Virus record (IMG/VR): IMGVR_UViG_3300020576_000847
Coordinates: 48,094 to 68,093 of that record
Source: an uncultured virus (IMG/VR IMGVR_UViG_3300020576_000847)
Lineage: Duplodnaviria > Heunggongvirae > Uroviricota > Caudoviricetes
Reading direction: 5' to 3' (one strand)
DNA: 20,000 nt
Shown piece by piece: positions 3,544 to 7,941 of the stretch (the first letter of the stretch is position 1; every line of letters starts with the position of its first letter). A program made the position numbers and the translations under genes. The notes under the pieces are model-generated. The model ran no database searches, was not told the origin of the DNA, and saw only the letters and a list, made by a program, of their open reading frames with translations.

Positions 3544-3942
3544 TTAAAGAGGTTCGTCCGGCACGAATTGAAGATCGACCGATGCCAGCACGTCCGCGCA
3601 CCATTCCCATGGCAGTTTGAAGTCCTGTGCTGCGGAGTAGAGGTTCATCCCGGCACAGGCGGCGACAGCATCCTGTTCGGATATGATGCCTTCTTCTCCC
3701 CACGCGACTGTATCGGGCAATATGCCCGCCTTCATGCCGGTCCACAGCAGCACATCAGCGTCGGTCGCGCTCATGTCCTGCATCATGTAGTGCGTGGCAG
3801 GCGTCTCATAGGTCGCCTCCGGATCGACGGCGCAGAGCTTGCGGGAGATGTTGTTCGGGCCACGGCCAAGAGCCTCAAGCACGGCATTTATGCCGTCTTT
3901 TGCGGAGACCGGGCAGATAAGAATAGTAGGAAGGTTTGTCAT
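3544..3942 (-). CDS. Hypothetical protein, partner of the upstream lectin-like protein (GC-rich cassette)
   Basis: Start reassigned from 3954 to ATG 3942 (MTNLPTILIC...). That ATG overlaps the upstream TAA (TAATG) and has GGAG just upstream. Confidence 0.7.
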   Translation of the reverse strand: MTNLPTILICPVSAKDGINAVLEALGRGPNNISRKLCAVDPEATYETPATHYMMQDMSATDADVLLWTGMKAGILPDTVAWGEEGIISEQDAVAACAGMNLYSAAQDFKLPWEWCADVLASVDLQFVPDEPL

Positions 3943-5111
3943 TAGTAGCTCCATGCATTAGTGAGTTTGACGATTTCGGCAGGGGTTAGGGCGCGGTTGA
4001 TCGCGAGGGCTTGGTAGATGTCCACCGAAGCGAAGAGCGACGCCACCGAGCTAGCAGCCAGCGCCACGGCATTTGCGATGGTGACGGAGCCTGACTGCGA
4101 TTGGGATGCAAGCAAACCCTCATCGCTGTAGAGATTTACGGTGGTTCCATCCCACGTGAGAACGGCTATCGCTGTCTGGCCGGCGCGGTTCGATCCGCCT
4201 GTGAGATTGGCCCCCGTCCCAACGTTCGCGAGAATTCTGCCATCCGCCGCCAATACCAAGATAACATCATCGGTCGATGCATTGCGCGCGCCCATAAGTA
4301 TCTGGCTGCTGTTGCCAACGGCCTTGTTGAATTTGAGCGCCAGCGAGCCCTTGCCGCCGGCGTCGAATTTGAATGTCGTCAGAAGATTGTCATCCGACCC
4401 GTCATAGCGCGTCAGCCCGCCCGCCTTGAGAACTGGCCGTGCACCAGACGTGGCCTGAGAGGCGCGGTTGCCGGGGATTTCTTTAATGGAGACGTTATCG
4501 AGATACAGCGTCCCCGCCGCGCCGGCGCGAAGGTAGATGTTTATTGTTATCCCGGATGCCCCGGTTCGACAGATGCAGTCGATTGCCTGATCGGATGATG
4601 ACAGCGTAATCGGATTTCCGGAGGGCTGAATGGCCCAACCGCCGGCTATTGTGTCTATCCTAAGAGCCCCGGATGAGGCCGTCCCCAACCGCGCCTTCCC
4701 GACGAGCAAACGGAAGGACGTGTTTGCCGCCAGAACTATCTGTTGCACCACACCCTTGGCAGCGCCATCAGTTGTTAATTGCAGTTCACCGGCGACAACG
4801 GCTATTGTCGCCCCGACATCGTTGGTCGACCATCCGGTTGTGCCGTTGTCGAAGCCACCGTTGACGACAAGCTCCGCCTGCGCCGCCAGCACCTGCGCCA
4901 GCGTCTTGCCACCCCATTTCGATATATCCAGCGCCAACCCGACATTCTGGTCTACGCCAGCCGGGGTAATGCCTGTCGCTTCCTGAAACAGAGTATCGGC
5001 ACGGCTGAAATCATAGAGGAAGCCGTTCTCGCCATTGGCAAAAAGGAAGTAATCGTGCCAACGATAGCCTCTCTTATTATAAAGACCAAAACCAATTCCT
5101 AAATTAAGCAT
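3942..5111 (-). CDS. Putative carbohydrate-binding virion protein (CBM-like insert plus C-terminal ConA/LamG-like domain)
   Basis: 389 aa. N-terminal LFANGENGFLYDFS..TLFQ...VGLALD motif. The segment ELVVNGGFD..GW...LYLDNVSIKE resembles a CBM4/9 beta-sandwich. The C-terminus AVLTWDGTTVNLY...NRALTPAEI resembles LamG. GC content is much higher than in the flanks. Confidence 0.6.
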   Translation of the reverse strand: MLNLGIGFGLYNKRGYRWHDYFLFANGENGFLYDFSRADTLFQEATGITPAGVDQNVGLALDISKWGGKTLAQVLAAQAELVVNGGFDNGTTGWSTNDVGATIAVVAGELQLTTDGAAKGVVQQIVLAANTSFRLLVGKARLGTASSGALRIDTIAGGWAIQPSGNPITLSSSDQAIDCICRTGASGITINIYLRAGAAGTLYLDNVSIKEIPGNRASQATSGARPVLKAGGLTRYDGSDDNLLTTFKFDAGGKGSLALKFNKAVGNSSQILMGARNASTDDVILVLAADGRILANVGTGANLTGGSNRAGQTAIAVLTWDGTTVNLYSDEGLLASQSQSGSVTIANAVALAASSVASLFASVDIYQALAINRALTPAEIVKLTNAWSY

Positions 5112-5984: not shown

Positions 5985-6857
5985 TTAGAAGTTCACGTTA
6001 TAAATAGCGCGAATGAGACCTTCAGGACGGAGAATCTTACGACCATAGACCTGAAGACCACGAGTGATATCAGCAAAGCTGTTAGTATCACGATAGGTTT
6101 CAGTCTTAGTAAGCATCTGAGCCGTAGCACAAGCACTCTTCACACCAGCGACGATAACACCGTAGTTCGTAGCGGAACCATCAGTATCAATCGTACCCGG
6201 ACCAGTACCGAGATACGGGAGCGAGTTGCTCTTATAGACAGAAAAACCACGAAGAGTACCAGCAATAAGCTTGCCATTCGTAAGCTGATCCGCACCCGGA
6301 TTATAATCATTATTGATTAGCTTGGAATTTTCATCCGTAAGCTTCTCAGTAAACACCGGGTCAATCACAATGAAACGACCCTCTTCAGGAACATTCAGTT
6401 CATCAAGCTTACGGGCGAAACGGTTAATAAGCTCAAGCGGGGTAACATCGTAAGTACCCTTAGTACCCACAACGACAGAATCAGACGAAGAACCACCACT
6501 AACAAACGAAGCACGAGTCAGCTTGTTAGCAGCCAGAAGCTCGTCATTATCCGCAGTCGTCCAAGACTTCGAACCGACCGGGGCCGTACGAGCAGCCCAA
6601 GAGATCGAAGACGGGGTATCAGTACGCTCAAAGCCAGACATATAGCCAAGGATATCCGCATCATAGCGTTCCTTAAGTCTATAACCAGCACGGTCAGCAG
6701 CCATATCCATCCAATCAACATGCGACTGCATCTTTTCGATGTCATCGATCTTGAAATTGAACGAATTAGCACGATCAACCGTCAGAATAAAGTCTTCATC
6801 CTGAAGGTCTTGAGCCACAAGCTGCGAACCACGAGCATACGGAGTAACCACAATTTC
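5985..6857 (-). CDS. Major capsid protein, exon 2 (spliced product 354 aa; HK97-fold coat protein)
   Basis: Reads EIVVTPYARG...QDLQDEDFILTVDRANSFNFKIDDIE...ARKLDELNVPEEGRFIVIDP...YRDTNSFADITRGLQVYGRKILRPE. It joins exon 1 in frame (IIKEP|EIVVTPY). Confidence 0.9.
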   Translation of the reverse strand, partial: EIVVTPYARGSQLVAQDLQDEDFILTVDRANSFNFKIDDIEKMQSHVDWMDMAADRAGYRLKERYDADILGYMSGFERTDTPSSISWAARTAPVGSKSWTTADNDELLAANKLTRASFVSGGSSSDSVVVGTKGTYDVTPLELINRFARKLDELNVPEEGRFIVIDPVFTEKLTDENSKLINNDYNPGADQLTNGKLIAGTLRGFSVYKSNSLPYLGTGPGTIDTDGSATNYGVIVAGVKSACATAQMLTKTETYRDTNSFADITRGLQVYGRKILRPEGLIRAIYNVNF

Positions 6858-7749
6858 CAAATATGTTATTATACAGTTGTTTATACTGTATTTCAATAAG
6901 TTTCCTTATTGTTCAGACTATATCTTCATCCTTTATTTCTAAAGGAGCCAAGCACTCTTGGGTTATATTTATTTTGTATTCCATACTTTTATGTATATAT
7001 GGTTTAACAATTGAAATGAATTTATGAGAATCTTTAGTATTTAATCTTACAGAAAAACGATTTGATCTTTTATCACAATCAAATTTAATATCAATATCAT
7101 ATTTTTCTTTAAACCAATCTTTAATAATATTAATTTCATCTAAAGAACAATATGTTGCTATACGAATCATACAACCACAAATTTTATTTTGTTTATTTCG
7201 ACAAATAGTTCCAGAACCATCATCCATAAACCAAAGAGCAAGTCCTTGATCAGTCAAATAATCTAAACATTGTTTAGTAAATACTTTTTCTCCAAATGGG
7301 TATAAAACTCTGTGCATTTGCTTAAAGTATTTATTTGTTTTAGTTGTTTGAAAATTTGTATATTCTTTTTGTGATTGTTTATTAAATGATTTATACTCAT
7401 ATAACTTAGGCCTTTTCCCACCTAAAACAGAATGAAGTAAATCAATTTTATGATTTAAATACTCTTGTTGTTTAGGAGAATGCCCTATAGTTAATTTGCA
7501 ATATTGTGTATTAAAATTATTTTTAGCTAAGTGAAGATTCCCATCACCTAAAACTAGTCCATATAGTATACCACGTTTTTCTTTATTCATTTCATCCTTC
7601 GTTAGTTACTAGAACCACTACTACAAATAAATATAACCTAGTCGTTGAACCTTCCCTTTTCAGGGCTTGGCTGCTGATTACCATTTCAGGCTTCCAGCAA
7701 TTCACTTGGTTTCAAAATTACATTACTGTAAAATGGCCCAAAATTGTTT
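6858..7749 (-). mobile_element. Group I self-splicing intron (probably subgroup IA) in the major capsid gene
   Basis: The 5' exon ends in U and the intron ends in G. P1 is GCCU|AAA-CAAU-UUUGGGC with a U.G pair at the splice site. P10 is CAAUUUU paired with exon GAAAUUG. Core elements: P AAUUGCUGGAAG (7691-7702), Q AAUCAGCAGCC (7669-7679), R GUUCAACGACUAG (7638-7650), S AAGAUAUAGUCU (6915-6926). P3 is CCAAGU/GCUUGG. P2, P6, P8 and P9 hairpins carry GNRA-type loops. Confidence 0.93.
6913..7590 (-). CDS. Intron-encoded LAGLIDADG homing endonuclease (two-motif type)
   Basis: 225 aa, Lys-rich. Motif 1 is GILYGLVLGDGNL and motif 2 is GLALWFMDDGSG. It has its own SD (GAAGGA) and is very AT-rich relative to the flanking exons. 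Confidence 0.9.
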   Translation of the reverse strand: MNKEKRGILYGLVLGDGNLHLAKNNFNTQYCKLTIGHSPKQQEYLNHKIDLLHSVLGGKRPKLYEYKSFNKQSQKEYTNFQTTKTNKYFKQMHRVLYPFGEKVFTKQCLDYLTDQGLALWFMDDGSGTICRNKQNKICGCMIRIATYCSLDEINIIKDWFKEKYDIDIKFDCDKRSNRFSVRLNTKDSHKFISIVKPYIHKSMEYKINITQECLAPLEIKDEDIV

Positions 7750-7941
7750 AGGCTCTTTAATGATCCTGACGCTATCTCCCTGGTTCTTAATCTCACCAAA
7801 ATATTCGGAGTTAGTAATCTGATCAACAACGGTCTTCTTACGGAAAGCCTTCTGGACTTTCTTCGAGTAAATTTGCGGCGACCAAGCTACACCGGGAAGA
7901 TTCCCATAGTTAGCCGCCGTCTGAAAAGCATAACTAGACAT
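7750..7941 (-). CDS. Major capsid protein, exon 1 (64 codons)
   Basis: MSSYAFQTAANYGNLPGVAWSPQIYSKKVQKAFRKKTVVDQITNSEYFGEIKNQGDSVRIIKEP is a typical coat-protein N-terminus. SD GAAGGA; it follows the scaffold gene. Confidence 0.9.

Follow-up and report, generated by a model that had tools for sequence, protein, structure and literature searches.

Reviews of intron-encoded endonucleases assign HNH, GIY-YIG, PD-(D/E)xK and EDxHD enzymes to phage introns, and place LAGLIDADG enzymes mainly in organelles, bacteria and archaea (PMC3984707, available sections). By sequence, the solved relatives of the endonuclease described here are I-SceI and I-WcaI (PDB 1r7m, 6x1j), monomeric proteins of ~230 aa with two motifs that are encoded by fungal mitochondrial group I introns and belong to the same Pfam family. 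I-SceI-type enzymes cut a long DNA site and leave 4-nt 3' overhangs (PMC2425494, in excerpt). Among phages, a LAGLIDADG_2 ORF of this Pfam family and of the same PHROG, 11023, lies in a group I intron of the DNA polymerase gene of Nitunavirus (Bastillevirinae) (PMC11878797, in part). The major capsid gene of mycobacteriophage LittleE carries a group I-like intron of 819 bp whose splicing was shown, and its putative homing endonuclease is likened in the text to a LAGLIDADG protein (PMC3706429, in part); the same source cites a capsid intron in lactococcal phage Tuc2009. Several group I introns per capsid gene are described for crAss-like phages, the genomes of which hold LAGLIDADG ORFs (PMC7886860, in part), and the Jug phages have 17 LAGLIDADG genes among many introns (PMC12880540, in part). 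Finally, phiPA3 gp210 is an intron-encoded nuclease directed against an essential gene of a relative (PMC11620839, in part). LAGLIDADG genes in phage introns, and introns in capsid genes, are already in print. A literature search of main texts returned no paper on the present endonuclease family in phages of the HMO-2011/phiM6 type, and the available text of PMC10580990, PMC11835236 and PMC13619312 makes no mention of it. Likewise, a search conducted mostly outside subscription journals returned no biochemically characterised LAGLIDADG enzyme from a phage intron.

Here we describe a 20,000-nt stretch of viral DNA (hereafter the window; positions 48,094 to 68,093 of IMG/VR record IMGVR_UViG_3300020576_000847) in which an intron with a LAGLIDADG_2 gene interrupts the major capsid gene. 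We consider it likely that this is a mobile, self-splicing group I intron whose I-SceI-type endonuclease homes into intron-less capsid alleles, and that it is an old resident.

Results

The phage record is complete, with 68,093 nt and terminal repeats in direct orientation, and the window spans its packaging and head module, with terminase, portal, capsid and tail genes. Runs containing the stretch were mostly wastewater metagenomes. A block of ~59% GC within the window (3544-5111), in a genome of 36% GC, holds a 389-aa lectin-like tail gene (weak match to Laminin_G_3) and a 136-aa ORF, and resembles a tail module that was swapped in not long ago. In sequence, the capsid protein shares 58-60% identity with its counterparts in Sinorhizobium phage phiM6 (genome of 68,176 bp; PMC6256558) and three Rhizobium phages, including RHph_N3_13, the next relatives being HMO-2011-type phages at 42-52%. 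The phage is phiM6/HMO-2011-like.

The capsid genes of phiM6 and RHph_N3_13 are uninterrupted. That of the window lies on the minus strand in two exons. Exon 1 (7750-7941) comprises codons 1-64, its last base being the U of the 5' splice site, as judged from junction mapping and a phrog_267 match over profile positions 20-78; exon 2 (5985-6857; phrog_267 E 8.5e-49) comprises codons 65-354 and the stop. Between them, after codon 64, lies an intron of 892 nt (6858-7749, minus strand). The splice junction given in the original prediction is right, as excision of 6858-7749 yields a 354-aa capsid ORF with no internal stop.

Rfam model RF00028, for which the gathering threshold is 50 bits, matched the intron in two halves split by the ORF, at 7570-7755 (46.3 bits, E 4e-9) and 6896-6928 (25.6 bits). 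The whole-genome Rfam search returned no other group I intron and also missed this one. At locus L046, the intron at the same site scored 64.7 bits in one piece. We examined the structure by covariation in an alignment of 19 introns at codon 64, taken from 21 distinct carriers. With the structure drawn on the window's own sequence, a choice that favours the structure, 90.5% of 1066 cells were paired and 33/57 pairs displayed two-sided changes. None of 500 shuffles scored this high, and sliding the structure left only 30-53% of cells paired.

All intron elements lie on the minus strand. P1 (7736-7753) contains a U.G pair at the 5' splice site in 19/19 introns. Its guide also forms P10 with the first 5 nt of exon 2 (5/5 pairs in 19/19) and alters where exon 2 alters, which fixes the 3' splice site, and the terminal G is present at 6858. 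The 5' part of the core (7631-7731) comprises P2, P4-P6a and the 5' strands of P3 (7704-7709), P7 (7639-7643) and P7.1 (7631-7638). The 3' part (6858-6968), assigned from Rfam and covariation, comprises P7.1' (6961-6968), P3' (6948-6953), P8, P7' (6916-6920), P9 (6894-6911), P9.1 (6871-6891) and the terminal G. P3 was 100% paired over the ~750 nt that it bridges across the ORF, with 4/6 pairs changed on both sides; P6 and P7 were likewise 100% paired, and P4/P5 99.4%. Since P4 and P7 are invariant, they supply no covariation. Pairing of P8 was just 74.6% because of alignment slips, and that of the poorly aligned P9.1 was 42.6%. The P7.1 stem, which encloses the ORF, also covaries, with 146/151 cells paired versus 28-69 of ~134 when slid. 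Extra paired elements between P7 and P3' (P7.1/P7.2) are a feature of subgroup IA, and it is by this feature, a covarying stem that surrounds the ORF, that we call the intron IA-like. Folding of the 5' part alone gave a z of -1.19; as the core is pseudoknotted, the folding score is uninformative. Taken together, compensatory changes in 19 relatives support the core as well as both splice sites.

The search for splicing covered the contigs of 4 of the 24 runs listed for the stretch and gave no joint that skips the intron, in RNA or DNA, a result that bears neither way on splicing. The 2 RNA runs yielded only short contigs, none spanning a splice junction. An 11/12 match to a sigma-70-like promoter lies in the P9/P9.1 end (6868-6896, minus strand) and faces exon 2; in L001, an IMG/VR relative, the -10 box differs, so the match is possibly due to chance.

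The ORF within the intron (6913-7590, minus strand) has a predicted product of 225 aa. In a search against LAGLIDADG families, it matched Pfam LAGLIDADG_2 (PF03161) over the full profile (1-168 of 168) at 102.4 bits (E 3.3e-29), above the curated cut-off of 25. It also matched PHROG 11023 (phrog_11023), and a whole-genome profile search found it to be the single PF03161 gene in the genome. An AlphaFold model built with a 40-row alignment had a pLDDT of 92.7, with residues 215-225 below 50. Foldseek returned I-WcaI as the best match to this model (E 1.5e-14, TM 0.72) and I-WcaI and I-SceI as the top five (TM 0.71-0.72), which suggests the two-domain beta-saddle fold of LAGLIDADG enzymes. Both motifs of the original prediction, LGDG (D16) and MDDG (D123/D124), were invariant in 40/40 aligned homologues. 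Alignment to I-SceI places D124 at D145, K102 at K122, K206 at K223, and D16 at D44, which we take to have an active-site role. Across the 40 rows D16, D124 and K206 were invariant and K102 was conserved in at least 90%. The roles of I-SceI D145, K122 and K223 are stated in the available text of PMC3928301 and PMC2425494. Thus the description of an intact two-motif LAGLIDADG enzyme was borne out by family, predicted fold and aligned active-site residues, and the endonuclease gene is real and intact, its product probably active.

The same residues bear on whether the ORF is kept chiefly as a maturase, which would bind the RNA of its own intron so that capsid mRNA, required by the phage in bulk, is spliced faster, with DNA cleavage weak or secondary. 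We regard this as improbable. A pure maturase would not need the aligned acids and lysines that are invariant or nearly so in 40 homologues, and ORF-less group I introns exist in the same gene family (the third intron of L001, and L104, L110 and L214), including that of L110 at codon 64, although in some cases the same genome also has a related ORF.

As originally proposed, the ORF has a putative ribosome-binding site of its own. The segment 7595-7617 contains a small hairpin (7603-7617; only 74% paired across the 19 introns) followed by an SD-like GAAGGA (7595-7600) located 4 nt upstream of the ATG, and an AAGG(A) element precedes the start in 19/19 aligned introns. At the other end of the gene, the final ~18 codons overlap P7.1', P3', P8 and P7', and 66/84 of the best protein clusters terminate in E/D-D-I-V. 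That these codons are read through the ribozyme core explains both this ending and the disordered tail.

A protein search returned 110 clusters, of which 83 had at least 51% identity. The best match in bacterial genomes (53%) was on one 44-kb MAG contig, the others reaching at most 33%. The best GenBank matches were crAss-like records at 30-33%, and the GenBank phage collection held 23 records with related LAGLIDADG_2 genes at 24-33%. These matches qualify the statement that phage intron endonucleases are classically GIY-YIG or HNH, with LAGLIDADG enzymes known from elsewhere: the classical part agrees with the available sections of PMC3984707 (HNH/GIY-YIG/EDxHD), but the rarity was overstated, since related LAGLIDADG_2 genes are known in phages.

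We mapped insertion sites by placing 80/210 viral and 80/504 metagenomic loci on capsid codons, with 13 site labels set by hand after 8 loci had been re-read. Removal of truncated, unmapped and identical rows left 54 distinct endonucleases. Of these, 21 lie at codon 64; codon 46 accounts for 15 in phase 1 and 13 in phase 0, and codons 47, 53, 56, 60 and ~247 have one each. Seven of the mapped capsid sites fall within ~55 nt (codons 46-64). Among distinct homologues at 51% identity or more, 19/21 share codon 64. Sites also clustered on a quick endonuclease tree (15 changes versus a shuffled mean of 36.8), although among the rows labelled 'nonMCP' there is at least one from a different capsid family (L081, SU10_MCP). 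The site-64 ORF of L049 is split in two frames; as loci were sought by their endonuclease, broken and ORF-less copies are under-counted.

Three placements count against strict site fidelity. L027 (61% identity), second only to L001 in closeness among homologues of known context, has its insertion 10 nt upstream (L027:2338-3248). In L110 (56%), a codon-64-type enzyme sits in a codon-46 intron (L110:110-1340), and an ORF-less intron is retained at codon 64. Conversely, a codon-46-type enzyme sits at codon 64 in L058 (39%; L058:2326-3230). These mismatches between clade and site suggest exchange of endonucleases between adjacent introns. The position of L027 and the swaps in L110 and L058 would also suit an enzyme whose actual target lies away from the insertion point (perhaps upstream, between codons 60 and 64) or that has drifted to a neighbouring site. 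We think this unlikely given that 19/21 close homologues hold codon 64, and the ORF-less codon-64 intron of L110 is consistent with its enzyme still aiming there. Cleavage at or near the junction remains our preferred reading.

Several loci displayed further arrangements. The capsid gene of L001 (L001:1030-4198; 93-98% DNA identity) has three group I introns. Its extra intron after codon 56 (890 nt) encodes a second LAGLIDADG_2 protein (33% identical) and is separated by a 24-nt exon from the codon-64 intron; its third is ORF-less and near the 3' end of the gene. The window's phage is without both extra introns. The third intron (322 nt; L001:3823-4144, L002:1317-1638) opens with the last 17 capsid codons repeated in frame, recoded and with one residue changed, and then a stop, so unspliced RNA would also yield full-length capsid protein. 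The third intron of L003 (267 nt) is without this copy. Tandem capsid introns with short exons between them were also found in L046 (three endonuclease-bearing) and in L044 and L045 (two each), and in L104 an ORF-less codon-56 intron precedes the codon-64 intron. In L032 (L032:1200-1270), excluded because its enzyme duplicates that of L028, the 5' splice region reads as exon 2 sequence passing into intron and is probably a chimeric assembly or a recombinant. Outside the capsid gene, a distant homologue (36%; L088:2501-3905) lies just upstream of a photosynthetic reaction-centre (psbA/psbD-type) frame, and could mark an intron, or an endonuclease gene standing on its own, in a cyanophage. The terminase gene of Xanthomonas phage DES1 (L408; OK624832.1, ~31,360-32,140) is split by a region that is 80% like the 5' core of the window intron over 92 nt and has a 165-aa ORF; this cultured phage likely holds an unannotated group I intron.

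The original prediction named the intron-less capsid allele as the target. We anchored capsid loci on exon 2 and inspected codons 40-100 in the best 80 of 589 confirmed loci. Presence of the intron proved patchy, with 78 of these 80 uninterrupted, the other 2 being the truncated close relative and a locus whose ORF-less intron lies at a different site. L004 (89%) and L005 (78%), which are the next lineages in order of similarity, are without the intron. On a capsid tree of 84 rows, which kept 50/81 intron-less rows, 19 carriers required 15 changes versus a shuffled mean of 17.3. Shared sites (19/21), scattered carriers and uninterrupted relatives make the intron-less allele at the junction the most likely target, and the distribution fits a pattern of homing and loss. 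Against the homing account, the scatter on the tree could also stem from repeated loss.

Sequences at the junction were compared over 18 bases. L004 differs from the window's phage at 6/18. Among 78 distinct intron-less alleles, 1 was within 2 mismatches, 9 were within 3, and 60 mismatched at 4-6. All three near-identical IMG/VR contigs (L001-L003) carry the intron, and among them there was no intron-less allele of the same phage species. With mostly mismatched junctions and only carriers among these contigs, the present prey of the enzyme was not found. The best matches to the junction elsewhere in the phage's own genome had 4 mismatches. The letters GAGCCT/GAA were present at the junction in 17/17 scored carriers versus 8/78 intron-less alleles; 4/21 carriers were unscored, and one of these, L046, differs. 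P1/P10 pairing could account for these fixed letters just as nuclease preference could.

Junction mismatches also bear on the idea that the main benefit is interference, in which the enzyme would cut the capsid gene of distant co-infecting relatives with no homing repair, in the manner of phiPA3 gp210 (PMC11620839, in part). In favour of such a role are this precedent, the essential nature of the capsid gene, and strong conservation of the target codons (IIKEP/E) across intron-less relatives. We nevertheless give it very little probability, since 60/78 intron-less alleles carry the 4-6 mismatches noted above and ordinary homing already accounts for the distribution.

The preferred reading, homing by an old resident, departs from the original prediction in the age of the element. 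The GC counts given there, of 8/60 at 7081-7140 and 28/60 at 6001-6060, are exact, and the ORF is lowest in GC of 44 long ORFs (25.7%; next 30.2%), versus 44-47% for the capsid exons and 36.3% for the genome. As a comparator, the exons are unusually rich in GC, since the capsid gene ranks in the top three of these 44 ORFs by that measure. Third-position GC of the ORF (0.128) is within the range of native late genes (0.118-0.18), and at 18 site-64 loci the endonuclease GC3 tracks flanking GC (rho 0.50, p 0.035, from rounded values). Endonuclease and capsid identities were correlated across 16 carriers, with L001, L042 and L058 excluded (Mantel rho 0.53, 0.003 of 2000 permutations). Codons with a synonymous difference from L001 numbered 19/226 in the ORF, 11/277 in the upstream gene and 17/166 in the downstream gene, and thus give no sign of a fresh sweep. 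There was no close donor among the protein clusters, the next being at 73%. We therefore reject recent acquisition as unsupported; the data are better matched by an element long resident in the group that spreads from relative to relative. A co-conversion tract is not claimed: the first 227 nt of exon 2 differ from L001 at 1 base and from L003 at 5, and the upstream flank is equally alike.

The ORF differs from that of L001 by 20 synonymous and 6 non-synonymous changes (Fisher p 3e-10; dN 0.011, dS 0.163, dN/dS ~0.07), and dN was below dS in all 62 deeper pairs below saturation. These comparisons indicate that the ORF is under purifying selection.

Discussion

We envisage that the intron RNA would fold as an IA-like ribozyme, a structure supported by covariation, and splice itself out, restoring the 354-aa capsid protein. 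The P7.1 loop would supply a separate ribosome-binding site, from which unspliced RNA is translated into a monomeric LAGLIDADG endonuclease of the I-SceI type. In a mixed infection, the enzyme would cut a relative's uninterrupted capsid gene at the codon 64/65 junction or a few bases away from it, and double-strand-break repair from the intron-bearing genome would copy the intron in, a step suggested by knowledge of the family and by the distribution. Continued homing would keep the element intact as an old resident of the phage group. This scheme follows the general homing mechanism as given in the available parts of PMC12350094 and PMC3943268.

A possible wider reading, to which we give slightly less than even credence, is that the gene belongs, as one branch, to an undescribed radiation of I-SceI-type endonucleases in phiM6/HMO-2011-like phages, with seven capsid sites, exons of 24-53 nt, overlapping targets and swapped endonucleases. 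If so, an enzyme may carry two introns at once (L110), or may end up aimed at a site that its genome leaves open (L058). Such a radiation would offer meganuclease specificities in a graded series made by nature, each with its target known, and would permit a direct test of how neighbouring homing elements compete and cooperate inside a gene that the phage cannot do without.

Compared with known systems, the phage ORF has in common with I-SceI and I-WcaI the fold (TM 0.72) and the aligned active-site residues, but it is only 20-23% identical to them, resides in a phage rather than an organelle, and has a protein-coding capsid gene as its likely target, with an activity that is predicted. The Nitunavirus case involves a single ORF in the polymerase gene of a Bacillus phage (PMC11878797, in part), whereas the family described here is dozens strong and in a capsid gene. 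In LittleE, which belongs to an unrelated host group, the ORF is on the opposite strand and is labelled 'HNH' in a figure legend (PMC3706429, in part). The crAss-like phages are another phage group with another capsid family (PMC7886860, in part). The action proposed here, an intron-encoded nuclease against a relative's essential gene, is that of phiPA3 gp210; the latter, for which interference was shown, is a nicking enzyme residing in an RNA polymerase gene of nucleus-forming jumbo phages (PMC11620839, in part). With uncultured phages in the sample, LAGLIDADG enzymes look common rather than exceptional among phage introns, and capsid genes stand out as a main target; our findings add weight to both points. 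Taken alone, the window intron is one more mobile intron; what it adds to the systems above is the crowded multi-site family and the apparent exchange of endonucleases within it, in which dozens of homologues with mapped neighbouring sites make up a ready set of small single-chain meganucleases (~210-aa core) with predictable targets.
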